64,000 nt of DNA from Escherichia coli (GCF_003790525.1 NZ_CP033636.1); one strand, 5' to 3'. Counted from the first letter of the stretch, positions 1,547 to 62,322 are shown. Notes: generated from the sequence alone by a model not told the origin. A program made the numbers and translations.

Positions 1547-2362
1547 TCAGAAAAACTCATCGAGCATCAAATGAAACTGCAATTTATTCATATCAGGATT
1601 ATCAATACCATATTTTTGAAAAAGCCGTTTCTGTAATGAAGGAGAAAATTCACCGAGGCAGTTCCATAGGATGGCAAGATCCTGGTATCGGTCTGCGATT
1701 CCGACTCGTCCAACATCAATACAACCTATTAATTTCCCCTCGTCAAAAATAAGGTTATCAAGTGAGAAATCACCATGAGTGACGACTGAATCCGGTGAGA
1801 ATGGCAAAAGCTTATGCATTTCTTTCCAGACTTGTTCAACAGGCCAGCCATTACGCTCGTCATCAAAATCACTCGCATCAACCAAACCGTTATTCATTCG
1901 TGATTGCGCCTGAGCGAGACGAAATACGCGATCGCTGTTAAAAGGACAATTACTAACAGGAATCGAATGCAACCGGCGCAGGAACGCTGCCAGCGCATCA
2001 ACAATATTTTCACCTGAATCAGGATATTCTTCTAATACCTGGAATGCTGTTTTCCCGGGGAGCGCAGTGGTGAGTAACCATGCATCATCAGGAGTACGGA
2101 TAAAATGCTTGATGGTCGGAAGAGGCATAAATGCCGTCAGCCAGTTTAGTCTGACCATCTCATCTGTAACATCATTGGCAACGCTACCTTTGCCATGTTT
2201 CAGAAACAACTCTGGCGCATCGGGCTTCCCATACAATCGATAGATTGTCGCACCTGATTGCCCGACATTATCGCGAGCCCATTTATACCCATATAAATCA
2301 GCATCCAGGTTGGAATTTAATCGCGGCCTCGAGCAAGACGTTTCCCGTTGAATATGGCTCAT
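1547..2362 (-). CDS. aph(3')-Ia: aminoglycoside 3'-phosphotransferase APH(3')-Ia (kanamycin/neomycin resistance, Tn903 type)
   Basis: 271-aa translation MSHIQRETSCSRPRLNSNLDADLYGYKWARDNVGQSG... matches the Tn903 kanamycin resistance protein. Confidence 0.95.
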   Translation of the reverse strand: MSHIQRETSCSRPRLNSNLDADLYGYKWARDNVGQSGATIYRLYGKPDAPELFLKHGKGSVANDVTDEMVRLNWLTAFMPLPTIKHFIRTPDDAWLLTTALPGKTAFQVLEEYPDSGENIVDALAAFLRRLHSIPVSNCPFNSDRVFRLAQAQSRMNNGLVDASDFDDERNGWPVEQVWKEMHKLLPFSPDSVVTHGDFSLDNLIFDEGKLIGCIDVGRVGIADRYQDLAILWNCLGEFSPSLQKRLFQKYGIDNPDMNKLQFHLMLDEFF

Positions 2363-2466
2363 AACACCCCTTGTATTACTGTTTATGTAAGCAGACAGTT
2401 TTATTGTTCATGATGATATATTTTTATCTTGTGCAATGTAACATCAGAGATTTTGAGACACAACGT

Positions 2467-2591
2467 GGATTTGTTGAATAAATCGAACTTTTGCTGAGTT
2501 GAAGGATCAGATCACGCATCTTCCCGACAACGCAGACCGTTCCGTGGCAAAGCAAAAGTTCAAAATCACCAACTGGCCCACCTACAATAAA
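2467..2591. mobile_element. IS903 terminal fragment (about 125 bp) upstream of aph(3')-Ia
   Basis: GGATTTGTTGAATAAATCGAACTTTTGCTGAGTTGAAGGATCAGATCACGC... matches IS903 end as found in Tn903; cut off by the Tn5393 IR. Confidence 0.7.
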
Positions 2592-2672
2592 GGGGTCGTT
2601 TGCGGGAGAGGGCGAAATCCTACGCTAAGGCTTTGGCCAACGATATTCTCCGGTAAGATTGATGTGTTCCCA
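2592..2672 (+). repeat. Tn5393 terminal inverted repeat (IRR, about 81 bp) downstream of strB
   Basis: GGGGTCGTTTGCGGGAGAGGGCGAAATCCTACGCTAAGGCTTTGGCCAACGATATTCTCCGG... Confidence 0.8.
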
Positions 2673-2697
2673 GGGGATAGGAGAAGTCGCTTGATAT

Positions 2698-3534
2698 CTA
2701 GTATGACGTCTGTCGCACCTGCTTGATCGCGGCCGCGATAGCTAGATCGCGTTGCTCCTCTTCTCCATCCGCGTTCCAAGCTGCGGAAAGGCACCCATAA
2801 GCGTACGCCTGGTCGAGCAGGCGACGCGGATCGACGTCCAGCGCACGAGAGAATGCGTCCGCCATCTGTGCAATGCGTCTAGGATCGAGACAAAGGTCGT
2901 CTCTGTCAGCCGGATCGTAGAACATATTGGCGGCGCCAAAGCCCACTTCACCGACCAGACCGACGGGATCTATCACCAGCCAGCCGCGACTGGAGAACAT
3001 GATGTTTTCATGATGCAGATCGCCATGTAGCCCACGCAGTTCCGAGGCATTGCTCATCATTTGATCGGCTATAATCGCCGCGTGGACGTAGTCAGTTTGA
3101 CAACCTGCGTTTTGATCATCGCGCGCCCGCTGAAACAAAGCTGCAAAGCGATCCCGGATCGGGAGAAGGGCAGAAGGCAGGGGTTCCTCAGATGCGGCAT
3201 ACAGCTTCGCCATTAGTTCCGCTGCAATTTCGGTCGCCTGGTAGTCGCCGTGCTCGGCAACGATGTGAGAGAGCATTCGCTCCCCGGCATATTCGAGCAA
3301 CATCAGATTGTTCTCACGACCGAGCAACCGGACTGCTCCCCTCCCATTGCGCCATACCAGATAGTCGGCCCCGCGCAGTTCATCAGCAATGTCTTCTATA
3401 GGTTTCAATTCCTTGACGATTGCAGGAGTCCCGTCTGGCAATGAAACTTTCCAAACGAGGCTGGAAAAGGTGTCCGCAATGAGAACAGGTTGCGAAACGT
3501 GCCAATGAGCAGGAAAAACAGGCGGCATGAACAT
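2698..3534 (-). CDS. strB: aminoglycoside 6-phosphotransferase APH(6)-Id (streptomycin resistance)
   Basis: Translation MFMPPVFPAHWHVSQPVLIADTFSSLVWKVSLPDGTPAIVK... (278 aa from internal ATG); overlaps strA stop by 1 nt. Confidence 0.95.
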   Translation of the reverse strand: MFMPPVFPAHWHVSQPVLIADTFSSLVWKVSLPDGTPAIVKELKPIEDIADELRGADYLVWRNGRGAVRLLGRENNLMLLEYAGERMLSHIVAEHGDYQATEIAAELMAKLYAASEEPLPSALLPIRDRFAALFQRARDDQNAGCQTDYVHAAIIADQMMSNASELRGLHGDLHHENIMFSSRGWLVIDPVGLVGEVGFGAANMFYDPADRDDLCLDPRRIAQMADAFSRALDVDPRRLLDQAYAYGCLSAAWNADGEEEQRDLAIAAAIKQVRQTSY

Positions 3535-4337
3535 CAACCCCAAGTCAGAGGGTCCAATCGCAGATAGAAGGCAAGGCGTTCGCGGTCGGGGGCTTCGATC
3601 CCCAATACATTGAATAGGACAGCGAAGGCGCGCTCTGCTTCATCTGGCGCTGCCCAGTTCTCTTCGGCGTTAGCAATCATGAGTGCCAAATCGGCATAGC
3701 GATCTGCTGTTCCGAGCCGCCCAAGGTCGATCAGACCCGTGCATTGAAGAGTTTTAGGGTCCACCATGAAGTTCGGCATGCAGGGATCACCATGGCAAAC
3801 AACCATATCGGTGCGCTCTTGGTCGAGCCGCACCGGTAGCTCTCGTTCGACACGAGCCAAAAGATCGAGCTGCGGCGTACTCTTGTCCTCGTCCGGTAAG
3901 AAGTCGGGATTGACGGCATTGCGGGACACCACATCAACGGCGCGTCCGAACATTCGCGACAGCCTGCGCTCAAACGGACATTGATCAACCGATAGGCTGT
4001 GAACAGCGCCAAGTTGCTGCCCCATTGACGGCCACGCTTTGAGCAAATCCGCTCCAGACAGATCAGCCGCCGGTACTCCCGGAATTGCCGTTATCACCAA
4101 GCATGCACCCTCCTGTTCCTCCTGCCAGTTGATCACCTCGGGGCAAGCCACACCTCGACCTTTGAGCCAAATGAGGCGGTCACGCTCTCCAGCGAGCTCA
4201 CCGCGGCGGGAAGCAGGTGCGATTTTCGCGAAGGCATGCCCGTCACCACGTCGAAAAACAAAATCACCAGATTCTCCGCCTCTGACAGGCAACCAGTCAG
4301 AATGCGATTCACCAAAAAAAATATTAGTTCGATTCAA
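3534..4337 (-). CDS. strA: aminoglycoside 3''-phosphotransferase APH(3'')-Ib (streptomycin resistance), TTG start
   Basis: 267-aa product LNRTNIFFGESHSDWLPVRGGESGDFVFRRGDGHAFAKIAPASRRGELAGERDRLIWLKG... within longer ORF. Confidence 0.95.
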   Translation of the reverse strand: MNRTNIFFGESHSDWLPVRGGESGDFVFRRGDGHAFAKIAPASRRGELAGERDRLIWLKGRGVACPEVINWQEEQEGACLVITAIPGVPAADLSGADLLKAWPSMGQQLGAVHSLSVDQCPFERRLSRMFGRAVDVVSRNAVNPDFLPDEDKSTPQLDLLARVERELPVRLDQERTDMVVCHGDPCMPNFMVDPKTLQCTGLIDLGRLGTADRYADLALMIANAEENWAAPDEAERAFAVLFNVLGIEAPDRERLAFYLRLDPLTWG

Positions 4338-10976: not shown

Positions 10977-12193
<1,217 letters not shown>

Positions 12194-15630: not shown

Positions 15631-16450
15631 GGCACTGTTGCAAATAGTCGGTGGTGATAAACTTATCATCCCCTTTTGCTGATGGAGCTGCACATGAACC
15701 CATTCAAAGGCCGGCATTTTCAGCGTGACATCATTCTGTGGGCCGTACGCTGGTACTGCAAATACGGCATCAGTTACCGTGAGCTGCAGGAGATGCTGGC
15801 TGAACGCGGAGTGAATGTCGATCACTCCACGATTTACCGCTGGGTTCAGCGTTATGCGCCTGAAATGGAAAAACGGCTGCGCTGGTACTGGCGTAACCCT
15901 TCCGATCTTTGCCCGTGGCACATGGATGAAACCTACGTGAAGGTCAATGGCCGCTGGGCGTATCTGTACCGGGCCGTCGACAGCCGGGGCCGCACTGTCG
16001 ATTTTTATCTCTCCTCCCGTCGTAACAGCAAAGCTGCATACCGGTTTCTGGGTAAAATCCTCAACAACGTGAAGAAGTGGCAGATCCCACGATTCATCAA
16101 CACGGATAAAGCGCCCGCCTATGGTCGCGCGCTTGCTCTGCTCAAACGCGAAGGCCGGTGCCCGTCTGACGTTGAACACCGACAGATTAAGTACCGGAAC
16201 AACGTGATTGAATGCGATCATGGCAAACTGAAACGGATAATCAACGCCACGCTGGGATTTAAATCCATGAAGACGGCTTACGCCACCATCAAAGGTATTG
16301 AGGTGATGCGTGCACTACGCAAAGGCCAGGCCTCAGCATTTTATTATGGTGATCCCCTGGGCGAAATGCGCCTGGTAAGCAGAGTTTTTGAAATGTAAGG
16401 CCTTTGAATAAGACAAAAGGCTGCCTCATCGCTAACTTTGCAACAGTGCC
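15631..16450 (+). mobile_element. IS26 copy 4 (820 bp), G184N variant type, flanked by 8-bp direct repeat CTTCTGGT
   Basis: Exact IS26 IRs; 15623-15630 and 16451-16458 both CTTCTGGT (target site duplication of a simple insertion). Confidence 0.95.
15694..16398 (+). CDS. tnpA: IS26 transposase, G184N variant
   Basis: ...[15 protein letters not shown]... Confidence 0.9.
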   Translation: MNPFKGRHFQRDIILWAVRWYCKYGISYRELQEMLAERGVNVDHSTIYRWVQRYAPEMEKRLRWYWRNPSDLCPWHMDETYVKVNGRWAYLYRAVDSRGRTVDFYLSSRRNSKAAYRFLGKILNNVKKWQIPRFINTDKAPAYGRALALLKREGRCPSDVEHRQIKYRNNVIECDHGKLKRIINATLGFKSMKTAYATIKGIEVMRALRKGQASAFYYGDPLGEMRLVSRVFEM

Positions 16451-40420: not shown

Positions 40421-40858
40421 ATGCTCTCGGTCGTATGGAAGCTGGACCGCCTCGGTCGTGATCTTCGTCATCTCATTAATACAGTGCACGACCTGACCGC
40501 GAGGGGGACCGGTCTGAAAGTGCTGACCGGTCACGGGGCGACTATCGACACAACAACGGCCGCTGGCAAGCTTGTCTTCGGTATCTTTGCCGCACTGGCG
40601 GAGTTTGAGCGCGAACTGATTGCTGAAAGAACGACTGCAGGTCTGGCATCAGCAAGAGCCCGTGGGCGGAACGGCGGCCGACCTTATAAAATGACGCCAG
40701 TCAAACTGCGACTGGCAATGGCATCAATGGGACAATCAGAAACAAAGGTCAGTACGCTATGCCAGGAACTTGGGATAACCCGGCAAACTTTGTACAGGCA
40801 TATTTCCCCTGTTGGTCAACTGCGGGCGGACGGGATCAAGCTGCTCAACCGTGGATAA
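40421..40858 (+). pseudogene. tnpR: Tn3-family resolvase gene fragment (C-terminal two-thirds)
   Basis: Begins at ...[67 protein letters not shown]...; lacks N-terminal catalytic serine region. Confidence 0.7.
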
Positions 40859-40908: not shown

Positions 40909-40928
40909 CCACATTTTTGCAACAGTGC
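40909..40928 (+). repeat. orphan IS6-family (IS26-like) terminal repeat
   Basis: CACATTTTTGCAACAGTGCC, ending in the exact 14-bp IS26 IR TTTGCAACAGTGCC with diverged subterminal sequence; no adjacent IS body. Confidence 0.4.
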
Positions 40929-41176
40929 CTTATAAATGGCAGCCTTATGTTTACTTGCCAAGATGGGCTACCATATGATGTTTTATACTGAGCAATATTA
41001 ATATTATCTTTAATGGAAAAATTAAGCCCACTAAGTGACCCACTGCTATATGGCTCTATTGTGAAGACGCCTGAGGGTAAAAATTTATACATGGTTGTCC
41101 CTATGTCTATTATTGCAAGGTTGACAATATTATTCGTTTTATAAATTTGAGCGTTTAAAATCACACATCAAAGCAA

Positions 41177-41833
41177 TTAGTCAGGATAAACAACAATACC
41201 CAGTGCTTCGAGAATCAGTTCTTGCTGCCAGGCTGCAATTTTGATACCTGATGTATCGACTTTGCGGGGATCTAAACCGTCGAGTTCGGCGTGGCATAAA
41301 TTGGCACCCTGTAGGCTAAATTGCCCCCAGACATCTTCGGAAAAAACACCTCGACTTAAGTCTGACTCTTTCAGTGATGCACCCGCTAGGTTCGTTCCTA
41401 TCCAGCGATTTTCAAACAACTCACATTTTTCTAAACAAACCCTCTCCATATTGGCATAGGAAAGATTACATCCAGAAATAAATGCTGAGCAAAAGTACAT
41501 ACGATTACTCACTTGATGGGCAAAGTTTGTTCGGGAAAAGTTGGCACCTTTTAAATCACACGCACGGAACTCTATACCGTAGCAATTGGCATTACTGAAG
41601 TTTGCCATCGCAAGTTGGCATTGTTGGAAACTTGCATCACGAAGATCTGCGACATCAAAGTGGCAGCCTTCGATATCACCCTGTTCAATGAACTTGCAGT
41701 TGACGAATGTCGTATCACGCAAGTTAGCACGTCGAAAGTCGCTGCGAATGAATGTGCAAGCGGTGAAGGTGAGATCACTTAAGTCTTTATGTGAAAAGTT
41801 GTGGTGCCGATATGTATGATTGTAGGTTTCCAT
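41177..41833 (-). CDS. qnrS1: pentapeptide-repeat quinolone resistance protein QnrS1
   Basis: 218-aa METYNHTYRHHNFSHKDLSDLTFTACTFIRSDFRRANLRDTTFVNCKFIEQGDIEGCHFDVADLRDASFQQC... Confidence 0.95.
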   Translation of the reverse strand: METYNHTYRHHNFSHKDLSDLTFTACTFIRSDFRRANLRDTTFVNCKFIEQGDIEGCHFDVADLRDASFQQCQLAMANFSNANCYGIEFRACDLKGANFSRTNFAHQVSNRMYFCSAFISGCNLSYANMERVCLEKCELFENRWIGTNLAGASLKESDLSRGVFSEDVWGQFSLQGANLCHAELDGLDPRKVDTSGIKIAAWQQELILEALGIVVYPD

Positions 41834-42847: not shown

Positions 42848-43667
42848 GGCACTGTTGCAAATAGTCGGTGGTGATAAACTTATCATCCCCTTTTGCTGAT
42901 GGAGCTGCACATGAACCCATTCAAAGGCCGGCATTTTCAGCGTGACATCATTCTGTGGGCCGTACGCTGGTACTGCAAATACGGCATCAGTTACCGTGAG
43001 CTGCAGGAGATGCTGGCTGAACGCGGAGTGAATGTCGATCACTCCACGATTTACCGCTGGGTTCAGCGTTATGCGCCTGAAATGGAAAAACGGCTGCGCT
43101 GGTACTGGCGTAACCCTTCCGATCTTTGCCCGTGGCACATGGATGAAACCTACGTGAAGGTCAATGGCCGCTGGGCGTATCTGTACCGGGCCGTCGACAG
43201 CCGGGGCCGCACTGTCGATTTTTATCTCTCCTCCCGTCGTAACAGCAAAGCTGCATACCGGTTTCTGGGTAAAATCCTCAACAACGTGAAGAAGTGGCAG
43301 ATCCCGCGATTCATCAACACGGATAAAGCGCCCGCCTATGGTCGCGCGCTTGCTCTGCTCAAACGCGAAGGCCGGTGCCCGTCTGACGTTGAACACCGAC
43401 AGATTAAGTACCGGAACAACATGATTGAATGCGATCATGGCAAACTGAAACGGATAATCGGCGCCACGCTGGGATTTAAATCCATGAAGACGGCTTACGC
43501 CACCATCAAAGGTATTGAGGTGATGCGTGCACTACGCAAAGGCCAGGCCTCAGCATTTTATTATGGTGATCCCCTGGGCGAAATGCGCCTGGTAAGCAGA
43601 GTTTTTGAAATGTAAGGCCTTTGAATAAGACAAAAGGCTGCCTCATCGCTAACTTTGCAACAGTGCC
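42848..43667 (+). mobile_element. IS26 copy 5 (820 bp), V171M transposase variant
   Basis: Exact IS26 IRs; flanks tgagaacg / cactagtg. Confidence 0.95.
42911..43615 (+). CDS. tnpA: IS26 transposase, V171M ([10 protein letters not shown]), G184 form
   Basis: Single substitution relative to copies 1, 2, 6. Confidence 0.9.
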
Positions 43668-49482: not shown

Positions 49483-50721
<1,239 letters not shown>

Positions 50722-50830
50722 CTGTCAGACCAAGTTTACTCATATATACTTTAGATTGATTTAAAACTTCATTTTTAATTTAAAAGGATCTAGGTGAAGA
50801 TCCTTTTTGATAATCTCATGACCAAAATCC

Positions 50831-50868
50831 CTTAACGTGAGTTTTCGTTCCACTGAGCGTCAGACCCC
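50831..50868 (-). repeat. Tn3/Tn2 38-bp IRR (second copy)
   Basis: CTTAACGTGAGTTTTCGTTCCACTGAGCGTCAGACCCC, followed directly by tet(A) internal sequence. Confidence 0.9.
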
Positions 50869-51770
50869 ATATCGGGCGGATCGTGGCCGGCATCACCGGG
50901 GCGACTGGGGCGGTAGCCGGCGCTTATATTGCCGATATCACTGATGGCGATGAGCGCGCGCGGCACTTCGGCTTCATGAGCGCCTGTTTCGGGTTCGGGA
51001 TGGTCGCGGGACCTGTGCTCGGTGGGCTGATGGGCGGTTTCTCCCCCCACGCTCCGTTCTTCGCCGCGGCAGCCTTGAACGGCCTCAATTTCCTGACGGG
51101 CTGTTTCCTTTTGCCGGAGTCGCACAAAGGCGAACGCCGGCCGTTACGCCGGGAGGCTCTCAACCCGCTCGCTTCGTTCCGGTGGGCCCGGGGCATGACC
51201 GTCGTCGCCGCCCTGATGGCGGTCTTCTTCATCATGCAACTTGTCGGACAGGTGCCGGCCGCGCTTTGGGTCATTTTCGGCGAGGATCGCTTTCACTGGG
51301 ACGCGACCACGATCGGCATTTCGCTTGCCGCATTTGGCATTCTGCATTCACTCGCCCAGGCAATGATCACCGGCCCTGTAGCCGCCCGGCTCGGCGAAAG
51401 GCGGGCACTCATGCTCGGAATGATTGCCGACGGCACAGGCTACATCCTGCTTGCCTTCGCGACACGGGGATGGATGGCGTTCCCGATCATGGTCCTGCTT
51501 GCTTCGGGTGGCATCGGAATGCCGGCGCTGCAAGCAATGTTGTCCAGGCAGGTGGATGAGGAACGTCAGGGGCAGCTGCAAGGCTCACTGGCGGCGCTCA
51601 CCAGCCTGACCTCGATCGTCGGACCCCTCCTCTTCACGGCGATCTATGCGGCTTCTATAACAACGTGGAACGGGTGGGCATGGATTGCAGGCGCTGCCCT
51701 CTACTTGCTCTGCCTGCCGGCGCTGCGTCGCGGGCTTTGGAGAAATTCTTCAAATTCCCGTTGCACATAG
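50869..51770 (+). pseudogene. tet(A): tet(A) fragment lacking ~124 N-terminal codons, with altered 3' end
   Basis: Starts ...IGRIVAGITGATGAVAGAYIADITDG...; ends ...LPALRRGLWRNSSNSRCT instead of ...LWSGAGQRADR; one internal difference from full copy (MTVVAAL vs MTVAAAL). Confidence 0.9.
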
Positions 51771-52342
51771 CCCGGCAATTCCTTTCCCTGCTCTGCCATA
51801 AGCGCAGCGAATGCCGGGTAATACTCGTCAACGATCTGATAGAGAAGGGTTTGCTCGGGTCGGTGGCTCTGGTAACGACCAGTATCCCGATCCCGGCTGG
51901 CCGTCCTGGCCGCCACATGAGGCATGTTCCGCGTCCTTGCAATACTGTGTTTACATACAGTCTATCGCTTAGCGGAAAGTTCTTTTACCCTCAGCCGAAA
52001 TGCCTGCCGTTGCTAGACATTGCCAGCCAGTGCCCGTCACTCCGCGGTCTTCACTGCGTGATCGAGTTGATCGACACCCGCCGTGACACGCTCCATGAAG
52101 TGCCTGCCTGCGTCTGTTAGCCGAACGCCCCGCGCATGGCGCTCAAATAGCAGGACACCAAGGTTATCCTCCAGCGCTTTCACACGCGCGCTGACGCTCG
52201 ACTGGCTGATACCAAGTGCCTTGGCCGCATGCCGAAAATTCAGATGCTCGGCGACGGCGATGAACTGAACAAGGGAAATGAGCGGTATCCTGCCAGACAG
52301 GATACCGACATTCACGAGGTTTCGATGGTTAGTGCGCCGCAT
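51771..52342 (-). pseudogene. truncated LysR-family regulator gene downstream of floR
   Basis: 101-aa ORF 52037-52342 carries the N-terminal HTH (…ISLVQFIAVAEHLNFRHAAKALGISQSSVSARVKALEDNLGVLLFERHARGVRLTDAG…); effector domain missing. Confidence 0.6.
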
Positions 52343-52369
52343 CGGAGCGGGCCTGCTACCAGTCGTCGG

Positions 52370-53584
52370 TTAGACGACTGGCGACTTCTCGGTGGCAGCC
52401 CCACGGAGCCGAAGGAGCACCAGCCCCAACGAAACCAGTACCGCCATCGCCGTGGCGTAACAGATCACGGGCCACGCTGTGTCACCGTTTAAAAGTGCCA
52501 CCGCCAATGTCCCGACAATGCTGACTATCAGGCTTTGAACGCAGAAGTAGAACGCGACCGCTGATCCCGCGATGTCGTCGAACTCTGCCAAAGCGCCGTT
52601 CGCGGTAACGGACACCGTGAAGACAATACCGACCGCGACAACCCACATCGGTAGGATGAAGGTGAGGAATGACGGCGAGCCGTAAAGTTCGCCGATCCCC
52701 AACAGGACCGCTCCGCAAACAAGCAACGCCATCCCACGCGCCACGCATCCTGCGATGCCCCATCTGGCGACAAAGGACTTCGCGAAACGGGTTGTCACGA
52801 TCATTACAAGCGCGACAGTGGCGAAGGCAAAGCTGAATCCGATCTCGGAATATTCCGCTTGGCCTATGAGCACACGGGTAGCCGTCGAGAAGAAGACGAA
52901 GTAGGTGCCCATACCGGCGCTAAAGCCGACAGTGTAAACCCAAAAAGCCGGACTCGCGAAGATCGGCAAGACAGATCGGCGCGTCTTGACTTGATCCAGA
53001 GGGCGGGTTTCGTGCCACCTGAAACCCGCATTTAGGAGTGCGAGCATCGCCAGTATAGCCAAAGTAATGAATATCGCCTGCCATCCCAAGAACTCGCCGA
53101 TCAATGCTCCGGCGATAGGGCCGAGCGCAGGCACGAACGCCAGCATCGAACTGAAAAGGCCGTAGATGACGACACCCTCAGGACGGTTGGCATAAACGTC
53201 GCGAACCGTCGCGAACGTCGCCACCAGCATGGCCGACGCGCCCACTGCTTGAAGTAGACGGAAAGCGACAAAGGCCGGTGCAGTTGAAGACCAAGCTGCT
53301 CCCAGAGACGCAATGACGAAAGCCGTTGCGCCCGCAAGTAGAATTGGCCGTCGCCCGATTCTGTCTGAGAGCGGACCAAAAATCACCTGGCCCACGCCGA
53401 GCATCACCATATAGAGGCTCAACGTGAGTTGGATCATAGCGGGCGTCGTGTTCAGGATGCCGGGCATCGCTGGAACGACAGGGAGATAAATATCCATCGC
53501 CAGTGAAGCGAGGATGTCGAAAGGAGCCATCAGCAGCAGTGCTGCCGGCAGCGTATAGGCCCACGCGGGGCGTGTGGTGGTCAT
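52370..53584 (-). CDS. floR: florfenicol/chloramphenicol efflux MFS transporter FloR
   Basis: 404-aa MTTTRPAWAYTLPAALLLMAPFDILASLAMDIYLPVVPAMPGILNTTPAMIQLTLSLYMVMLGVGQVIFGPLSDRIGRRP... Confidence 0.95.
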   Translation of the reverse strand: MTTTRPAWAYTLPAALLLMAPFDILASLAMDIYLPVVPAMPGILNTTPAMIQLTLSLYMVMLGVGQVIFGPLSDRIGRRPILLAGATAFVIASLGAAWSSTAPAFVAFRLLQAVGASAMLVATFATVRDVYANRPEGVVIYGLFSSMLAFVPALGPIAGALIGEFLGWQAIFITLAILAMLALLNAGFRWHETRPLDQVKTRRSVLPIFASPAFWVYTVGFSAGMGTYFVFFSTATRVLIGQAEYSEIGFSFAFATVALVMIVTTRFAKSFVARWGIAGCVARGMALLVCGAVLLGIGELYGSPSFLTFILPMWVVAVGIVFTVSVTANGALAEFDDIAGSAVAFYFCVQSLIVSIVGTLAVALLNGDTAWPVICYATAMAVLVSLGLVLLRLRGAATEKSPVV

Positions 53585-53800
53585 GACGAATCAACCCTCG
53601 ATTAAGGAATACCGGGCGACGTCTGCTCGTCAGCAATCAGATGAGACTAGCCTTACAGAGCGCCGCAACAACAATACTGGTTGTTGCGGCTTACTTGTCT
53701 GCTGACTTGGAATTTCCCATCTGATTACTCCACGCTTACGAATATGAATTGCTACATTTTATCCGATTATCTTTTGCTTCGCAATGCGGCATGGGCGCAC

Positions 53801-54685
53801 TCAGCGTTCCAGCCCCCTCTGCCGCCCTAACTGCCACGACACCGACCCGCCCTGCACGATGCCCATAACCTCGCGGCCGAGTTGGCGGTCGATGATCGGC
53901 CGCCACGGGACAAGGGTGAACTCATGGGATTTCTCGACCACGGCGAACTTGCCGCTCGATAGATGCACGGTTCCGGTAAACTTGCCGCTGACGCTCTCGC
54001 CGTCCGTGGCGGCGCGGAACGGCAGGCCCTTACTCAAAGCCATATCCGATCCGACGCCGGCTACCTCGCGCTCCCGCAGGATGGCGAGAAGGTTGCGCCG
54101 GTAGAAGACGCGGCTGTCCCGGCTGCGGGTGGCGTCGCCCTGTTCGATATGGTGCTCGCGGCGCTGGTCCATGGCTTCGCGGACTTGTTGCCCGAAGCCG
54201 GTTGGCGCAAGGTCGGCCGTCTCGCCGTGGATCAGCCGCCGGTCCAGCCAGGTCGCGCCGTCCGATCCGATCTGTTTGTTCAGATCGACCGGGGAAAGGA
54301 CGCGAACGCTGGCCTGACTGTCTCGGCCGGCGTCATGGGCGGCGGCACGGCTGACCAGATCATCGGGGATGCGCCATTGGTCGGCGTCGATCCGCTCGAC
54401 GATACCGGCCCGGCGTAGCGCCTCCAGCCGGCGCACATGGGCATCGACATAGCCCTCATAGTCGCCGCCTGGAACGCGGCACGTATAGGAAGAATAAACG
54501 CCCTTTTCACCCAAGTCCAACAGCTTTGGACCGCAGTTGACTCTTTCGACACCCCTGCGATGCAACCCAATCCGGCTGACGGGGAGCCAGCAACGCTGAA
54601 AATTTACCCTCCTCTTTCCCACTAGCGGCTCCTTTTCCGACAACCAGCACGGCGGATCCCTGCCGCGGCGCTGTGAACGCAGCAT
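53801..54685 (-). CDS. hypothetical protein of the floR module (position of the ORF often labelled virD2-like)
   Basis: 294-aa high-GC ORF between ISCR2 remnant and floR; product not confidently assignable. Confidence 0.4.
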   Translation of the reverse strand: MLRSQRRGRDPPCWLSEKEPLVGKRRVNFQRCWLPVSRIGLHRRGVERVNCGPKLLDLGEKGVYSSYTCRVPGGDYEGYVDAHVRRLEALRRAGIVERIDADQWRIPDDLVSRAAAHDAGRDSQASVRVLSPVDLNKQIGSDGATWLDRRLIHGETADLAPTGFGQQVREAMDQRREHHIEQGDATRSRDSRVFYRRNLLAILREREVAGVGSDMALSKGLPFRAATDGESVSGKFTGTVHLSSGKFAVVEKSHEFTLVPWRPIIDRQLGREVMGIVQGGSVSWQLGRQRGLER

Positions 54686-54715
54686 TTTGATTGGTATCGT
54701 TGGCCTTCAGGCTCG

Positions 54716-55547
54716 TCAGTCAAACAGACCCAGGAGCAGCTCAGCCGGTGGCGCCCGGCTTTCGGGTAACGCCCTGGTCCCGCTGGTTTCGGCTTTGTGC
54801 TTCAGGTGATCAAGGATCTGCTTGATCACTATAGGGTCTTCAATGCAGGCGATGACTTTCATGGCGCCGCCGCAGCCGCTGCAGGTCTCGATGTCGATAT
54901 TGAAAACACGCTTGAGCCGTTGCGCCCATGTCATCGACGCTCGCCGTTGTGCTGGTGTTGCCGGTTCATCAGCCACCCTGACCTTGTTGCCCCTGCCCCG
55001 TTTTGCCGGCGTGACCAACGCCCGGTGCCGACTGTTGGGTGCGAACACCCCGTGGAAGCGGGTTAGGTTGACTCTGGGCTTCGGTACCAGGGCGGCCAGC
55101 CTTGCAATGAAATCCAATGGTTCGAAAATGACGTGCGTGGTGCCGTCCCGGTACGGCGTCTTGAGCTGGTAGCGCACGTTGCCGCCTCGTGTTAACGACA
55201 GCCGCTTCTCGGATACCGCCGGGCGGCTGATGTACCGGCACAGCCGTTCGAGCTTCTTGCGTTCATCGGCCCTGGCCGCCACGCCGGCGTGCAGGCTGGA
55301 CCCGGCTACCTTGCCAATCCCGTCACCGAACGGATCACCACTGGTCGGCAGAGTTTGCAAAGTGAACACCTTTCGCCCCGCCTGTGAACCGACAGCGATA
55401 CGGTAAGTGATCGAGTGCCCCAGCAGGGGTGTCATCGGGTCGTCATCCACCGCATCCGAGGCCAGATAGCTGTTTTCGACATCCCGTTCCAGCAGGCCTT
55501 GCCGTTCCAGATAGCGACCCACCCGGTGGGCGATGGTGTGCGTCAGC
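54716..55547 (-). pseudogene. ISCR2 (IS91-family) transposase gene, 3' portion only; 5' part removed by IS1006-like insertion
   Basis: ...RLSLTRGGNVRYQLKTPYRDGTTHVIFEPLDFIARLAALVPKPRVNLTRFHGVFAPNSRHRALV...; reads into IS IR at 55548. Confidence 0.75.
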
Positions 55548-56366
55548 GGCACTGTTGCAAATAACCACGAATGGTAAGCTGAAGACTGTTTTAGCTAAAG
55601 GTGCAGCATATGAATCCTTTCCATGGTCGGCATTTTCAGGGCGAAATCATTCTTTGGGCTGTGCGCTGGTATTGTAAATATGGCATTAGCTATCGTGAAC
55701 TGCAGGAAATGCTGGCCGAACGGGGTGTGAATGTTGATCACACGACTATTTACCGTTGGGTTCAACGTTATGCTCCTGAAATAGAAAAACGTTTACGCTG
55801 GTATTGGCGTAATCCTACAGATCTGAGCTCGTGGCATATTGATGAAACCTATGTAAAAGTGAATGGACGATGGTCTTATCTGTATCGTGCAGTCGATCAA
55901 CGTGGCGATACCATTGATTTTTATCTTTCTTCTAGACGTAATACCAAATCAGCATATTGTTTTCTTGGAAAAATTTTAAATAATGTGAAGAAGTGGCAAA
56001 TTCCACAAGTGATCAACACGGATAAAGCACCCACATATGGACGTGCTTTATCACGGTTAAAACGGGAAGGTAAATGTCCACCAGACCTTGAGCACAGGCA
56101 GATTAAGTATAAAAATAACGTGATTGAATGTGATCATGGCAAGCTAAAGCGGATCATCAGGGCCACATTAGGATTCAAATCTATGAAGACGGCTTATGCC
56201 ACAATTAAAGGTATTGAAGTCATGCGTGCACTACGTAAAGGACAAGCATCGTCATTTTATTATGGTCAGCCTCAGGGTGAAGTGTGTCTAATCAACAGGG
56301 TTTTCGGTCTCTAAGTACTTTTTAAAGGGAACATCATCGACTCAAATCTCTATTTGCAACAGTGCC
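55548..56366 (+). mobile_element. IS6-family element, IS1006/IS1008-like (819 bp), sharing the IS26 14-bp terminal repeat
   Basis: Ends GGCACTGTTGCAAATAACC... / ...TTTGCAACAGTGCC; internal sequence and transposase clearly diverged from IS26. Confidence 0.8.
55610..56314 (+). CDS. tnpA: IS1006-like transposase (IS6 family)
   Basis: [105 protein letters not shown]... Confidence 0.85.
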   Translation: MNPFHGRHFQGEIILWAVRWYCKYGISYRELQEMLAERGVNVDHTTIYRWVQRYAPEIEKRLRWYWRNPTDLSSWHIDETYVKVNGRWSYLYRAVDQRGDTIDFYLSSRRNTKSAYCFLGKILNNVKKWQIPQVINTDKAPTYGRALSRLKREGKCPPDLEHRQIKYKNNVIECDHGKLKRIIRATLGFKSMKTAYATIKGIEVMRALRKGQASSFYYGQPQGEVCLINRVFGL

Positions 56367-56400
56367 AAAAAAACCAACTTCAAGTTGGTTTTTCTTTTTT
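56367..56400. terminator. bidirectional rho-independent terminator-like hairpin
   Basis: AAAAAAACCAACTT-C-AAGTTGGTTTTTCTTTTTT: 9-bp stem flanked by A-run and T-run. Confidence 0.5.
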
Positions 56401-56731
56401 AATCATCAGTGGCGACCTTAACACCATATCCAATTAAACCTGCAAGGCTAGCATAGGCTATTTTGGCATAAATCGAACCCCACCAGACCGTAATTTTACT
56501 GGCACCAAATTCCCGAACCGTTTGCCCCATAAAATTAGTGGTTTCATAGAAATTTTTAGCAGAATAACCTAACGCAATATGATCAAGGACAGGGAATAAA
56601 CTAAAAGCTAAACCTACTGCTGCTGCGGGGAAAGTAAACTCTCTTGATAGACCGAATTTTCCAGTAATAAATACAAGCGATACCACGATAATTAATCTAA
56701 TGATAGTCCATAGCATCACTGTGAAAGGCAA
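56399..56731 (-). CDS. hypothetical small membrane protein (110 aa)
   Basis: Hydrophobic N-terminal helices; ORF only. Confidence 0.35.
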   Translation of the reverse strand: MPFTVMLWTIIRLIIVVSLVFITGKFGLSREFTFPAAAVGLAFSLFPVLDHIALGYSAKNFYETTNFMGQTVREFGASKITVWWGSIYAKIAYASLAGLIGYGVKVATDD

Positions 56732-56797
56732 GTTAAAGATGCCTGCTCCCTGCCACGCAAGACCGCAAACAACTAGGGGTCGTCTCAGAAAACGGAA

Positions 56798-58124
56798 TCT
56801 ATGGTCACTCCCGTTTTTGCAACACCGATTTTGACGACAAGTTGGCTTGCTTGAATCTATCCGGCGTCTGAATGGGATTTTATTCCCGCGCCTCGATGAG
56901 TTCCGCGCCTGATGAACCTCCAGAAAATATACGGCTTCAATGAGCCTTTCCGTTTTACAGGTTCCTCAACAGGCCGGTGGGCCGTTAGTATCATCAATAT
57001 CAGTATTCGCAAAACCAGATGAATGATTGTTTAAACTGGTGTATTTCTGCCTTTATGCTTCGTAAGTTTGCTGTCGCGCCGTCAGTGCCCAGGCTATTCT
57101 GGCCAGCTTGTTTGCCAGAGCACAGGTGACGACAAAGTTGCTTTTCCGACACAACAACTCCCTGACCCAGTCGGCCAACTTGCCAGACTGGTGTTCCAGT
57201 TTTTGTATGAATACCCTGGCACACTGAACCAACAAAGTTCGGATCTTTTTGTTGCCCCGCTTGCTAATCCCTAACAATGTCGTCCGACCTCCCGTGCTGT
57301 ACTGTCGGGGTACCAGCCCTGTTGCCGCCGCAAAGTCACGGCTGCTGGCGTACTGCTTCCCGTCGCCAATCTCAGTTGAAATAGTACTGGCAGTCAGCGT
57401 TCCAACGCAGGGAATACTCAGCAAGCGCTGTCCAACCTCATCTTCGTCCAACTTTCGTTTCAACTGAGATTCCAGATCTTTAATCTGCTCAACAAGATAG
57501 TGATAATGCTGTTGTAATTTCAGCAGTAACTGGCTGAGATAAAGAGGCAAACTACTGTCCTCAAGAAGGGTACTCAGTCGACTAATAACGGCAGCACCTC
57601 GCGGAACGCTGATACCAAATTCCAGCAGAAAAGCATGCATCTGATTAGTTGTTTTCACCTTATCCTGAACCAGGGATTCACGGACACGATGCAGAGCTCG
57701 CATTGCCTGCTGAGATTCGGTTCTGGGCTGCACGAAACGCATAGATGGACGTGATGCTGCTTCACAGATAGCTTCAGCATCAACGAAGTCATTTTTGTTG
57801 CTTTTAACGAATGGGCGGACAAATTGCGGTGATATCAGCTTTGGAAAATGCCCTAACTCTTCCAGCTTGCGTGCCATAAAGTGAGAACCGCCACAGGCTT
57901 CCATCGCGATGGTTGTTGCCGGGCATGTCGCCAGAAATTCGATTAGCTTTGGTCGGGTGAATTTTTTACGGTAAACGGCCTTCCCACGATGATCCTGACA
58001 ATGAATATGGAAAGAGTTCTTACCCAGATCGATACCAATAAGCGCAATGTTTTCCATGATGGTTCTCCGAATGAAAGCCTGTCCTCAGCATAGTACTGGG
58101 AAGGAGGGAGTGACCATCTCATTA
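56798..58124 (-). mobile_element. IS4321/IS5075-like element (IS110 family, 1327 bp) inserted in the 38-bp IR of a Tn21-family transposon
   Basis: Interrupts GGGGTCGTCTCAGAAAACGGAA (56776-56797) | AATAAAGCACGCTAAG (58125-58140), the Tn21 IRtnp; 1327-bp length matches IS4321/IS5075. Confidence 0.85.
57053..58057 (-). CDS. IS110-family transposase (IS4321/IS5075 type)
   Basis: 334-aa MENIALIGIDLGKNSFHIHCQDHRGKAVYRKKFTRPKLIEFLATCPATTIAMEACGGSHFMARKLEELGH... Confidence 0.85.
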   Translation of the reverse strand: MENIALIGIDLGKNSFHIHCQDHRGKAVYRKKFTRPKLIEFLATCPATTIAMEACGGSHFMARKLEELGHFPKLISPQFVRPFVKSNKNDFVDAEAICEAASRPSMRFVQPRTESQQAMRALHRVRESLVQDKVKTTNQMHAFLLEFGISVPRGAAVISRLSTLLEDSSLPLYLSQLLLKLQQHYHYLVEQIKDLESQLKRKLDEDEVGQRLLSIPCVGTLTASTISTEIGDGKQYASSRDFAAATGLVPRQYSTGGRTTLLGISKRGNKKIRTLLVQCARVFIQKLEHQSGKLADWVRELLCRKSNFVVTCALANKLARIAWALTARQQTYEA

Positions 58125-58135
58125 AATAAAGCACG

Positions 58136-61087
58136 CTAAGCCGGTTGCAGAGGCCGTAGCGGCCTGAACTTCCCCGCGCCGATCTTGGCGCTGCTGCGCC
58201 ATAGGTAATCACCGGTCAGGTTGATGTGCTCCCAGCCGAGTGGCGACAGGTACTGCAATAGCGAGTCATCGACGGCATGACCATTGCCGCGCAACGCATG
58301 CGCCGCACGCTCCAGGTAGACCGTGTTCCACAGCACGATGGCCGCCGTCACCAGGTTGAGGCCGCTGGCCCGGTAGCGCTGCTGCTCGAAACTGCGGTCA
58401 CGGATTTCACCAAGGCGGTTGAAGAACACGGCACGGGCCAGCGCATTGCGCGCCTCGCCCTTGTTCAGCCCGGCATGCACGCGGCGGCGTAGCTCGACGC
58501 TTTGCAGCCAGTCGAGGATGAACAGCGTGCGCTCGATGCGGCCCAACTCGCGCAGCGCGACGGCCAAGCCGTTCTGGCGCGGGTAGCTGCCGAGTTTCCT
58601 GAGCATCAGCGAGGCCGTCACCGTGCCCTGCTTGATCGAGGTGGCCAGCCGCAGGATTTCGTCCCAATGGGCGCGGACGTGCTTGATGTTGAGCGTGCCG
58701 CCGATCATCGGCTTGAGCGCGTCATAGGCGGCATCGCCCTTCGGGATGTAGAGCTTGGTGTCGCCCAGGTCGCGGATGCGCGGCGCGAAGCGGAAGCCCA
58801 AGAGGTGCATCAGGGCGAAGACGTGATCGGTGAAGCCCGCCGTGTCGGTGTAGTGCTCCTCGATCCGCAGGTCGGATTCGTGGTACAGCAGGCCGTCGAG
58901 CACGTAGGTTGAGTCGCGCAGGCCGACATTGACCACCTTGGTGTGGAATGGCGCGTATTGGTCGGAGATGTGGGTGTAGAAAGTCCGTCCTGGGCTGCTG
59001 CCATATTTTGGGTTGATGTGCCCCGTGCTCTTTGCCTTGCTAGCGGTTCGGAAATTCTGTCCGTCCGATGATGATGTGGTGCCATCGCCCCAGTGCCCGG
59101 CAAAGGGATGCCGAAACTGAGCGTTGACCAGTTCAGCCAACGCTGTCGAGTACGTTTCGTCGCGGGTATGCCAGGCTTGCAGCCAAGCGAGCTTCGCGTA
59201 GGTCGTGCCGGGGCAGGACTCGGCCATCTTGGTCAGGCCCAGGTTGATCGCGTCGGCCAGGATCGTGGTCAACAACAGGTTCTTGTCCTTGGCCAGATCG
59301 CCCGATTTCAAGTGCGTGAAGTGCCGGGTGAAGCCCGTCCACTCATCGACTTCGAGCAGCAGTTCGGTGATCTTGACGTGCGGCAGGACCATGGCTGTCT
59401 GGTCTATCAGCGCCTGCGCGGTGTCGGGCACCGCCGCATCCAGCGGCGTGATCTTCAAGCCCGACTCGGTGATGATGGCATCCGGCAGGTCGTTGGCTGC
59501 CGCCATGCGGTTGACGGTGGCAAGTTGTGCTTCCAGCAGCGTCAGCCGCTCATGCAGATATTGTTCGCAGTCGGTGGCCACGGCCAGCGGCAATTCGCTG
59601 GACTGCTTGAGGCTGGTGAACTTCTCGGGCGGTACCAGGTAGTCCTCGAAGTCCTTGAACTGGCGTGAACCCTGCACCCAGATGTCGCCCGAGCGCAGGG
59701 AGTTCTTCAACTCGGACAGCGCGCACAGTTCGTAGTAGCGCCGGTCGATGCCGGCGTCGGTCATCACCAGTTTCTGCCAGCGCGGCTTGATGAAGCCGGT
59801 CGGTGCATCGGCTGGCAGCTTGCGGGCGTTGTCGGTGTTCATGCCGCGCAGCACCTCAATGGCATCAAGCACGTTTTTGGCGGCGGGCGCGGCCCGCAGC
59901 TTGAGCACGGCAAGGAATTCCGGTGCATAGCGGCGCAGGGTGGCGTAGCTCTCGCCGATGCGATGCAGGAAATCGAAGTCATCGGGTTGCGCGAGCTTCT
60001 GCGCCTCGGTGACGCTCTCGGCAAAGGAATCCCAGGACATGACGGCCTCGATGGCGGCAAACGCATCGCGGCCTGATTGCTTGGCGTCGATCAGCGCCTG
60101 ACCGATGCGCCCGTACAGACGTACCTTGGCGTTGATGGCCTTGCCTGACGCCTGGAACTGCTGCTGATGCTTATTCTTGGCAGCGTTAAACAGCTTACCC
60201 AGGATGCGGTCGTGCAGGTCGATGATTTCGTCGGTGACGGTGGCCAGCGCCACGAGAGTGGCGTAGCGCCGTTGCGGCTCGAATTTGGCCAGGTCGGCGG
60301 GTGTCATCTGGCCGCCCTCGCGGGCAATCTTGAGCAGGCGGTTCTGGTGAACCAGCCGCTCGATGCCGGTAGGCAGATCGAGTGCCTGCCATGCCTTGAG
60401 GCGTTCGATGTGTTCCAGCATATGCCGCGAATTTGGCTTGGCCGGAGACTGGCGCAACCAAGCCAACCAGGTCGTCTTGCCGTTGTCCCGGCGCTTGAGC
60501 AGATCGTCGAGGCGGCGGCGATGCGCGTCCGCCAGTGGTTCGGCCAAGGCGTCGTAGATGCGCCGGTTAGCACGGGTGATCGCCTCGGCACTCGCCCGCT
60601 CGACGGCGTTGAGGGCGGGCAGAATGACCGACTGCCGCCGCAGGTGCCCGATCAAGGCGCTGGCCAGCACGATGCCTTTGTCGGTTTGCATCGCCAGCTC
60701 GGTCAGCATCTGGACGGCCTGCCGGTAATGGCTCATGGTGAAGGGCCGGAAACCGAACACGGTTTGCAGCTCGCTCAGGTGCTCGCGCCGGGTCTGCTCC
60801 CGCTGGCCGTACTCGTTCCAGCTTTCGACGCCGACCTTGAGCTGGTCGGCGACCAGCTTCAACAAGGGCGGGAACGGTAGTTCATCGACGCCCAGGATGA
60901 CGCCGGGAAAGCGCAGGTAACAGAGCTGCACCGCGAAGCCCAGCCGATTGGCTGGCCCGCGCCGCTGTCGGATGATCGAGAGGTCGGTATCGTTGAATGT
61001 GTAATGTCGGATCAGGTCGTCCTTGGAGTCCGGCAACGCCAGCAGGCTTTCCCGCTCGGCGGCGGACAGGATGGAACGACGTGGCAT
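58136..61087 (-). CDS. tnpA: Tn21-family transposase TnpA
   Basis: 983-aa [66 protein letters not shown]...; stop within IRtnp. Confidence 0.9.
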
Positions 61088-61089
61088 AT

Positions 61090-61502
61090 TTACTGATCCG
61101 TTCTCAAGTATTGATACAGGGTTTCGCGACTGATTCCGAATTCACGAGCAAGCTTGGTCTTTTGCTCGCCAGCCTCGACACGTTGGCGCAGTTCGGCAAT
61201 ACGCTCAGACGACAGGGATTTCTTCCTGCCACGGTAAGCCCCGCGTTGCTTGGCGAGCGCAATACCCTCGCGCTGACGCTCGCGGATCAGGGCGCGCTCG
61301 AACTCGGCGAACGCGCCCATCACCGAGAGCATCAGGTTCGCCATCGGAGAGTCTTCGCCAGTAAAACTGAGGTGTTCCTTGACGAATTCGATATGCACGC
61401 CGCGTTGTGTCAGCGTTTGCACGATCCGGCGCAAATCATCGAGATTGCGCGCCAGGCGATCCATGCTATGCACCACCACGGTGTCGCCGGTGCGGGCGAA
61501 GC
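61090..61502 (-). pseudogene. tnpR: Tn21-family resolvase tnpR, 5'-truncated by IS26
   Basis: ...FARTGDTVVVHSMDRLARNLDDLRRIVQTLTQRGVHIEFVKEHLSFTGEDSPMANLMLSVMGAFAEFERALIRERQREGIALAKQRG...YLRTDQ. Confidence 0.85.
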
Positions 61503-62322
61503 GGCACTGTTGCAAATAGTCGGTGGTGATAAACTTATCATCCCCTTTTGCTGATGGAGCTGCACATGAACCCATTCAAAGGCCGGCATTTTCAGCGTGA
61601 CATCATTCTGTGGGCCGTACGCTGGTACTGCAAATACGGCATCAGTTACCGTGAGCTGCAGGAGATGCTGGCTGAACGCGGAGTGAATGTCGATCACTCC
61701 ACGATTTACCGCTGGGTTCAGCGTTATGCGCCTGAAATGGAAAAACGGCTGCGCTGGTACTGGCGTAACCCTTCCGATCTTTGCCCGTGGCACATGGATG
61801 AAACCTACGTGAAGGTCAATGGCCGCTGGGCGTATCTGTACCGGGCCGTCGACAGCCGGGGCCGCACTGTCGATTTTTATCTCTCCTCCCGTCGTAACAG
61901 CAAAGCTGCATACCGGTTTCTGGGTAAAATCCTCAACAACGTGAAGAAGTGGCAGATCCCACGATTCATCAACACGGATAAAGCGCCCGCCTATGGTCGC
62001 GCGCTTGCTCTGCTCAAACGCGAAGGCCGGTGCCCGTCTGACGTTGAACACCGACAGATTAAGTACCGGAACAACGTGATTGAATGCGATCATGGCAAAC
62101 TGAAACGGATAATCAACGCCACGCTGGGATTTAAATCCATGAAGACGGCTTACGCCACCATCAAAGGTATTGAGGTGATGCGTGCACTACGCAAAGGCCA
62201 GGCCTCAGCATTTTATTATGGTGATCCCCTGGGCGAAATGCGCCTGGTAAGCAGAGTTTTTGAAATGTAAGGCCTTTGAATAAGACAAAAGGCTGCCTCA
62301 TCGCTAACTTTGCAACAGTGCC
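61503..62322 (+). mobile_element. IS26 copy 7 (820 bp), G184N variant type
   Basis: Exact IS26 IRs; flanks ggcgaagc / aatcttcc. Confidence 0.95.
61566..62270 (+). CDS. tnpA: IS26 transposase, G184N variant
   Basis: ...[15 protein letters not shown]... Confidence 0.9.
   Translation: MNPFKGRHFQRDIILWAVRWYCKYGISYRELQEMLAERGVNVDHSTIYRWVQRYAPEMEKRLRWYWRNPSDLCPWHMDETYVKVNGRWAYLYRAVDSRGRTVDFYLSSRRNSKAAYRFLGKILNNVKKWQIPRFINTDKAPAYGRALALLKREGRCPSDVEHRQIKYRNNVIECDHGKLKRIINATLGFKSMKTAYATIKGIEVMRALRKGQASAFYYGDPLGEMRLVSRVFEM

Follow-up and report, generated by a model that had tools for sequence, protein, structure and literature searches.

The stretch of DNA considered here (the window) comprises 64,000 nucleotides of Escherichia coli (GCF_003790525.1 NZ_CP033636.1). 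Between positions 54481 and 56775, it holds a truncated copy of ISCR2, a complete insertion sequence of the IS26 family, and a short fragment of Acinetobacter plasmid backbone, all in the neighborhood of the florfenicol resistance gene floR. The insertion sequence, delimited by its exact ends and its length, spans 819 bp (55548–56366, + strand). The 14-bp repeat GGCACTGTTGCAAA is found, exact and inverted, at both its ends (left, 55548–55561; right, 56353–56366), and a single intact ORF (55610–56314) encodes a transposase of 234 aa. The latter covers all positions (1–202 of 202) of the NCBIfam IS6-family model NF033587, with 279.5 bits (E = 1.5e-83) against a cut-off of 125. A size of ~0.8 kb, 14-bp repeats, and a single DDE transposase of ~234 aa place the element in the IS26 family. 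A preliminary description of this DNA had already pointed to an 819-bp element with IS26-identical 14-bp ends and a diverged transposase; the ends are indeed exact, and 199 of the 234 residues (85.0%) are identical to those of Tnp26.

Copies with 100% nucleotide identity to the whole element occur in plasmids of both Acinetobacter and Enterobacterales, where depositors and NCBI's pipeline have labeled them “IS6-like element IS1006 family transposase” or “IS6 family transposase IS1006.” At the same position of the collinear plasmid pHNGD64-NDM, the protein is annotated as WP_001067784.1 in RefSeq. The ISfinder isoform rule, as usually applied, asks that an element match the type sequence at 95% or more of its nucleotides. 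We base the name on identity to annotated copies, combined with agreement with the published length (819 bp; PMC7885321) and the published nucleotide identity to IS26 (75.4%; PMC7885326), for which 75.6% was measured here. Nucleotide identity, length, and annotation all agree, and they provide strong, if indirect, evidence that the element is IS1006 itself. Between IS1006, first found in Acinetobacter, and the copy in the window, no sequence difference could be detected, whereas the setting does differ, as this copy resides in an Enterobacterales IncHI2-type resistance region.

IS1006 and IS26 are alike in their identical 14-bp terminal repeats (16 bp at the left end), their organization, their 234-aa DDE transposases, and their ability to rearrange DNA without target duplications. 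They are unlike in most of their sequence (75.6% identity at the nucleotide and 85% at the amino acid level), with a longest identical internal run of 17 bp and a GC content of 41% for IS1006 versus 52% for IS26. IS1008 and the natural IS1006/1008 hybrid of pJ9-3 belong to the same clade as IS1006 and carry the same terminal repeats. The published overall identity of IS1008 to IS1006 is 87.4%, and the hybrid sets a precedent for hybrids among IS26-family members (PMC7885326). The band of plasmid matches with 80–90% identity to IS1006 is probably IS1008, and an IS1008 copy matched by our junction query was 96.4% identical across 253 bp of the IS1006 left end. No IS1008 segment is present in the element of the window. 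As for the transposases, the identities to Tnp26 quoted in the literature are 85.2% for Tnp1008 and 83.7% for Tnp1006 (PMC7885326), and the 85.0% measured here is nearer to the former figure.

The 14-mer of the terminal repeats occurs 17 times in the 64-kb window, versus 0.04 times expected by chance. These matches are accounted for by seven complete 820-bp copies of IS26, the 819-bp element, and an orphan end at 40916–40929. The seven copies, a number that the preliminary description had given correctly, start at 6121, 9721, 10977, 15631, 42848, 49483, and 61503; all are at least 99.6% identical to IS26 over their whole length, and just one of the seven is flanked by an 8-bp target duplication. 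Two of them bound the segment under study, namely the copy at 49483–50302 (- strand) on the left and that at 61503–62322 (- strand) on the right, the latter being the variant that encodes Tnp26 G184N.

Directly against the left end of IS1006 lies a 1067-bp piece of ISCR2 (= ISVsa3; 54481–55547, - strand), recognized by profile search and alignments. It keeps the 3′ 832 nt of the 1494-nt transposase gene; missing are the 5′ 662 nt (44%) and the terIS side. The ORF at 54716–55552 (- strand) matches the ISCR clade Ia profile NF052416 at positions 233–508 of 509 only (E = 4.4e-103), and its 345 bits fall under the cut-off of 925 because the gene is truncated. The GTG “start” of this 278-aa ORF, contributed by the terminal repeat of IS1006, is an artefact created by the ISCR2–IS1006 fusion. 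At its other end, the remnant terminates at 54481 in …TTCCTATACGT on the - strand, where …GCGTTTATTCTTCCTATACGT is what we take to be an oriIS terminus of the IS91/ISCR type. Exactly at this position, homology begins with Acinetobacter nosocomialis plasmids of different neighboring DNA; edge and terminus together therefore set the remnant to 54481–55547, beyond the stop codon at 54716 from which the preliminary description had counted it. Salmonella plasmid pSH696_135, with a complete ISCR2/ISVsa3, is 99.93% identical to window 52800–55547, after which the match ends. This ISCR2 is thus a remnant and not functional, with oriIS kept and the 5′ part of the gene and terIS gone, and, lacking a start codon and terIS, it is presumably inert here. 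An outward promoter of IS1006 acting on the remnant or on floR was considered and dropped, as the remnant is devoid of a genuine start codon and floR is ~2 kb off in its usual module (stop at 52370, start at 53584; IS1006 from 55548).

Further to the left, we find the remnant of a relaxase gene (virD2/RlxS; 53801–54685, - strand), annotated as a DUF3363 protein and matching positions 435–651 of 654 of the RlxS profile. This protein is the usual occupant of the space between floR and ISCR2 in the module of other plasmids. The floR gene itself (52370–53584, - strand), encoding a florfenicol/chloramphenicol efflux function, was identified from its ORF and from the annotation of identical DNA. Beyond lysR–floR follow 310 bp (51734–52043, - strand) left over from the terIS end of a second ISCR2 copy and made up of the first 192 nt of the ISCR2 gene and upstream DNA. 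This piece is 99.68% identical to an ISCR2-bearing reference, in which the match lies at 3219–3528 and the ISCR2 gene at 1917–3410.

To the right of IS1006, a 409-bp fragment with 39.4% GC (56367–56775) is assigned to Acinetobacter plasmid backbone by its matches to Acinetobacter plasmids, and it contains the 3′ part of a hypothetical-protein gene (ORF 56399–56731, - strand) whose product counts 145 aa when intact in Acinetobacter. Next comes the 38-bp terminal repeat of a Tn21-family (TnAs3-like) transposon (56776–58140, - strand), recognized by its sequence and split into 22 and 16 bp (56776–56797 and 58125–58140) by the 1327-bp IS5075 (56798–58124). The latter, with its transposase gene at 57053–58057, is supported by an IS110-family model and by the annotation of identical plasmids. 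The TnAs3-family transposase gene (58136–61102, - strand) takes its name from the annotation of pHNGD64-NDM, which is collinear with window 50000–62114 at 99.88%, and the transposon is interrupted by the IS26 at 61503.

With the 819-bp IS1006 as a query, 940 of 72,556 plasmids gave a match, 748 of them at 99% identity or higher. By genus, the 940 records comprise 414 from Acinetobacter, 219 from Escherichia, 173 from Salmonella, and 65 from Klebsiella. The association with Acinetobacter in the preliminary description thus stands, and only its wording “IS1006-like” gives way to IS1006 itself, with 100% identity over 819 bp. Its assumption that the element would not be a known Enterobacterales member of the IS6 family holds for the origin, yet the counts above make IS1006 a common annotated passenger in these hosts. 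Among 5426 complete E. coli genomes, 242–246 (~4.5%) carry IS1006, mostly plasmid-borne and at a median of one copy, whereas Acinetobacter plasmids hold multiple copies, in up to seven places per record.

A 501-bp query across the junction of truncated ISCR2 and IS1006 was at least 80% covered in 591 plasmids, which belong to many replicon types; the 409-bp flank is present in 512 plasmids, nine of which are from Acinetobacter. The exact 40-bp junction had no match in one-genome-per-species contigs, and the species range of the junction derives from the plasmid collection alone. A wider context of 4.3 kb (at least 80% covered) is shared by at least 84 plasmids, mostly large and of the IncHI2 type, from E. 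coli, Salmonella, and Klebsiella, with 100% identity in all 40 records among the matches listed. Moreover, IncHI2 plasmids of the pNDM33-1/pNDM-TJ33 type are collinear with the final 25 kb of the window, at 99.9% identity. A long form also occurs in Enterobacterales, where IS1006 is followed by 1253 bp of Acinetobacter backbone that end at an IS26. At its left, Leclercia pYUSHP29-1 has the same ISCR2 remnant, and the pPvSC3-like plasmids of Proteus/Providencia have a remnant of a Tn3-family transposase gene.

The combination has also been described before. In pE648CTX-M-65, floR is reported to be “flanked by IS1006-truncated ISVsa3” (PMC7533269), and IS1006 and ISCR2 are listed together in IncHI2 resistance regions (PMC5324782, PMC6288184, PMC8398143). 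In all, IS1006 and IncHI2 are named side by side in 31 papers. The genes, order, and junctions of the IncHI2 floR module (pE648CTX-M-65, pHNSHP45-2-like plasmids, pHNGD64-NDM, pNDM33-1) match those of the window, and no difference was found from the published IS1006-truncated ISVsa3–floR module (PMC7533269, PMC8398143). The module of IS1006, truncated ISCR2, and floR is therefore already known, published, and very widespread.

How the junction between ISCR2 and IS1006 came about can be read in part from its flanks. The preliminary description had IS1006 inserted into ISCR2. It does directly abut the 5′-truncated ISCR2; however, the flanking 8-mers are unlike (left, GCGTCAGC; right, AAAAAAAC), so an 8-bp target duplication is lacking and this is not a simple insertion of IS1006 into ISCR2, and the same junction is found in Acinetobacter plasmids. 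In the IS26 family, target duplications are usually missing after cointegrate resolution, conservative reactions, or adjacent deletion. Their absence bears on the history of this IS1006 copy, not on its membership of the family.

The Acinetobacter plasmids are more telling. In five of them (from A. lwoffii, A. ursingii, A. indicus, and two from A. pittii), the sequence of 56367–56775 is uninterrupted and without IS1006, beside an AAA-ATPase gene and traD. The homology of the 409 bp to Acinetobacter backbone has two sharp limits, the IS1006 end and 56775. Window 54481–56775 (2295 bp), in turn, recurs with 100.000% identity in A. nosocomialis p2014S01-097-1 and with 99.74% identity in p2014N23-120-1, in both of which the order is ISAba1, sul2, glmM remnant, truncated ISCR2, IS1006, hypothetical protein, AAA ATPase, and traD. 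The shared part runs from the oriIS end of ISCR2 through the breakpoint and IS1006 into the backbone, of which it includes the first 409 bp. The two settings differ on both sides: next to oriIS, A. nosocomialis has the glmM remnant and sul2, whereas the window has the virD2 remnant and floR, and the backbone on the right, which runs on for kilobases in both A. nosocomialis plasmids, is free of the Tn21-family transposon that interrupts it in the window. The ISCR2/sul2 part of the block is itself foreign to Acinetobacter.

Since the junction sits on native Acinetobacter backbone, the truncation of ISCR2 was most likely made in Acinetobacter and the block imported ready-made. The loss of the 5′ half of the gene, which the preliminary description ascribed to IS1006 at this very place, is real (662 of 1494 nt, plus the terIS side), but most likely inherited with the block and not produced in this plasmid. 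Its suggestion of DNA exchange between Acinetobacter and Enterobacterales, on the other hand, is borne out by the 409-bp backbone flank and by the 2295 bp shared with A. nosocomialis. The direction of the transfer, from Acinetobacter to Enterobacterales, is suggested by the continuity of the backbone and by GC content.

In the history that we propose, IS1006 would have been resident in an Acinetobacter plasmid backbone, beside the hypothetical-protein gene. Among the Acinetobacter plasmids in PLSDB, no simple IS1006 insertion with a target duplication was found at this backbone site, so this first step is reconstructed, not observed. An IS1006-mediated event without target duplication would then have joined the left end of the element to the middle of an ISCR2 carrying sul2. 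Two routes could have led there: copy-in into ISCR2, with the DNA in between later lost or resolved, or a reaction of two IS1006 copies, by cointegrate formation or by recombination. The block so formed (ISCR2 remnant, IS1006, and backbone) would have entered Enterobacterales in essentially one transfer. Its simplest route onto the module of floR, virD2 remnant, and ISCR2 would be a recombination in the 1067 bp of ISCR2 that the two have in common; the window matches the pSH696_135 module over 52800–55547 and the Acinetobacter block from 54481 onward, and the overlap lies in ISCR2. A Tn21-family transposon would subsequently have inserted 409 bp to the right of IS1006, after which the block may have traveled as passive cargo, shuffled by IS26, with IS1006 intact and essentially static. 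The similar numbers of non-Acinetobacter plasmids with IS1006 (~526) and with the 409-bp flank (~503), together with the 591 plasmids that share the junction and the single copy per E. coli genome, point to essentially one import followed by passive spread.

Two other histories have to be weighed against this one. IS1006 might have transposed into an intact ISCR2 in the present Enterobacterales lineage and deleted its 5′ half on the spot, which would suit the position of the IS1006 end directly against the ISCR2 breakpoint as well as the habit of IS26-family elements to make adjacent deletions without target duplications (PMC7885326). Yet breakpoint and right flank recur with 100% identity in A. 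nosocomialis, where the flank is native backbone, the right flank is Acinetobacter DNA and not the missing half of ISCR2, and the junction, being common to 591 plasmids of many replicon types, predates this plasmid. Such a local insertion is already largely refuted, and we regard it as extremely improbable. An assembly of the block in Enterobacterales followed by its export to Acinetobacter deserves slightly more attention, given the high GC content of ISCR2, sul2, and floR, their frequency in Enterobacterales, and the occurrence of the ISCR2–IS1006 junction in a handful of Acinetobacter plasmids versus hundreds from Enterobacterales. However, the low-GC flank is a mere stub of 409 or 1253 bp in Enterobacterales, ended by the transposon end or by IS26, whereas in Acinetobacter it continues into the AAA ATPase gene, traD, and more of the plasmid's genes, and in the five plasmids mentioned above it has no IS1006 at all; IS1006, moreover, is multi-copy in Acinetobacter plasmids and single-copy in E. 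coli. Export in that direction is, to our mind, very unlikely. We consider it highly probable that the locus is a known module whose junctions come from Acinetobacter and which spread passively after roughly a single import.

A different question is whether IS1006 acts as a working partner of the seven IS26 copies, with cointegrates and hybrids formed via the shared repeats shaping the resistance region, as the preliminary description had anticipated. In recA- E. coli, IS1006 alone forms cointegrates by both the copy-in and the targeted conservative route (PMC7885326), and the copy in the window, being identical in sequence, would be expected to do the same. Mixed pairs of IS26 and IS1006 behaved differently: cointegrates appeared at copy-in frequencies only (~1e-6 to 1e-7; PMC7885326, Harmer and Hall 2021), and none of the 18 screened was targeted, all being attributable to untargeted copy-in by each IS alone (PMC7885326). 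Harmer and Hall concluded that the two partners must share their transposase as well as extended identity at the end that reacts (PMC7885326). The seven IS26 copies and the IS1006 of the window include no hybrid or mosaic IS, the latter being 100% IS1006. When PLSDB was searched with chimeric queries carrying either IS26 end, the IS1006 breakpoint in ISCR2 was never occupied by IS26; only two-piece matches came up, in which IS26 interrupts ISCR2 at other positions. Cross-talk between IS26 and IS1006 at this locus thus goes against experiment, has left no trace in the window, and is not supported. What speaks for a working partnership is a single Providencia stuartii plasmid, pM2-1, in which IS26 exactly replaces IS1006, and this is the sole case of IS26 at the right-hand junction among the ~500 plasmids with the 409-bp flank. 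We rate the partnership as unlikely.

The case of pM2-1, the only IS26/IS1006 exchange encountered in related plasmids and located outside the window, merits a closer look. An 820-bp IS26 occupies the exact position and orientation that the 819-bp IS1006 has in the sister plasmids pNDM_NMG38-2 and pPvSC3, and the flanks agree base for base over 5180 bp on the left and 2073 bp on the right. The paper in which these three plasmids are compared never mentions IS1006 (PMC8615141). Any crossovers would have to lie in the 14–16-bp ends, and a genuine swap would thus point to the transposase more than to RecA; an error in finishing is just as conceivable. That IS26 and IS1006 exchange in vivo via their shared terminal repeats, despite the negative laboratory result, is a doubtful reading, drawn from this one plasmid. 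If it were true, the lone IS1006 of the window would be a latent docking site for IS26-mediated events, and the occasional replacement of IS1006 by IS26 would bear on the Harmer–Hall model of the targeted conservative reaction.

The locus adds no new type of element or mechanism to what is known of the IS26 family. The block of ISCR2 remnant, IS1006, and backbone does serve as a clean marker that part of the florfenicol resistance neighborhood of IncHI2 and related plasmids has passed through Acinetobacter. As such, it is of modest value for tracing the flow of resistance genes between animal-associated Acinetobacter and Enterobacterales.

An IS26 of 820 bp lies at positions 5181-6000 of L004, the sequence of plasmid pM2-1 from P. 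stuartii (NZ_MT813046.1), and an 819-bp IS1006 occupies the same site in pNDM_NMG38-2 from Proteus sp. (5182-6000 of L008, the sequence of that plasmid), as it likewise does in pPvSC3 (L009). When compared with these two plasmids, pM2-1 carries IS26 in the exact place of IS1006 with flanks that are otherwise identical, no mismatch being found in the 5180 bp to the left of the swap or in the 2073 bp to its right. This is the sole IS26-for-IS1006 swap among the approximately 500 plasmids that carry the Acinetobacter backbone flank, and it goes unmentioned in the paper comparing these plasmids (PMC8615141). It is either the product of a rare end-directed exchange between IS26 and IS1006 in vivo or else an assembly or finishing error.

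Within the window itself, three of the seven IS26 copies (10977-11796, 15631-16450, and 61503-62322) have three nucleotide changes in common and encode Tnp26 with G184N; this is the IS26 variant reported to have enhanced activity. Another copy (42848-43667) has V171M. Only the IS26 at 15631-16450 has the same 8 bp (CTTCTGGT) directly repeated on its two sides, and it is therefore the only one resembling a simple insertion; the remaining window copies and IS1006 are without duplications. In addition, an orphan IS26-type 14-bp end (TTTGCAACAGTGCC) without an IS body is found at 40916-40929. Its neighbors are a truncated resolvase gene (40421-40858) on one side and, on the other, a pentapeptide-repeat gene (41177-41833, minus strand, 218 aa) that looks like qnrS1. 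Immediately inside this end, the bases differ from those of IS26 and also from those of IS1006.

Beyond lysR-floR lie 310 bp (51734-52043) left over from a second ISCR2 copy, at its terIS end, and the floR segment therefore sits between two opposite ISCR2 remnants. To the right of IS1006, a Tn21-family (TnAs3-like) transposon has its 38-bp terminal repeat split by a 1327-bp IS5075 at the site where this element is usually found (56776-58140, repeat and IS5075 together). The transposon had in turn inserted into a hypothetical-protein gene of Acinetobacter origin. Elsewhere, window 2589-3949 is ~99.4% identical to the aph(6)-Id/aph(3'')-Ib (strAB) region of A. nosocomialis plasmids that also carry the IS1006 block, where strAB lies a few kb from IS1006; this match probably reflects merely the ubiquitous strAB module.

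The Acinetobacter import also occurs in a longer form in Enterobacterales (Leclercia pYUSHP29-1, pNDM_NMG38-2, and pPvSC3), where the Acinetobacter backbone after IS1006 extends for 1253 bp before IS26 cuts it off. In pPvSC3-like plasmids, the remnant of an AT-rich Tn3-family transposase gene replaces the ISCR2 remnant to the left of IS1006 and, given these different left neighbors, IS1006 has gained at least two left junctions.
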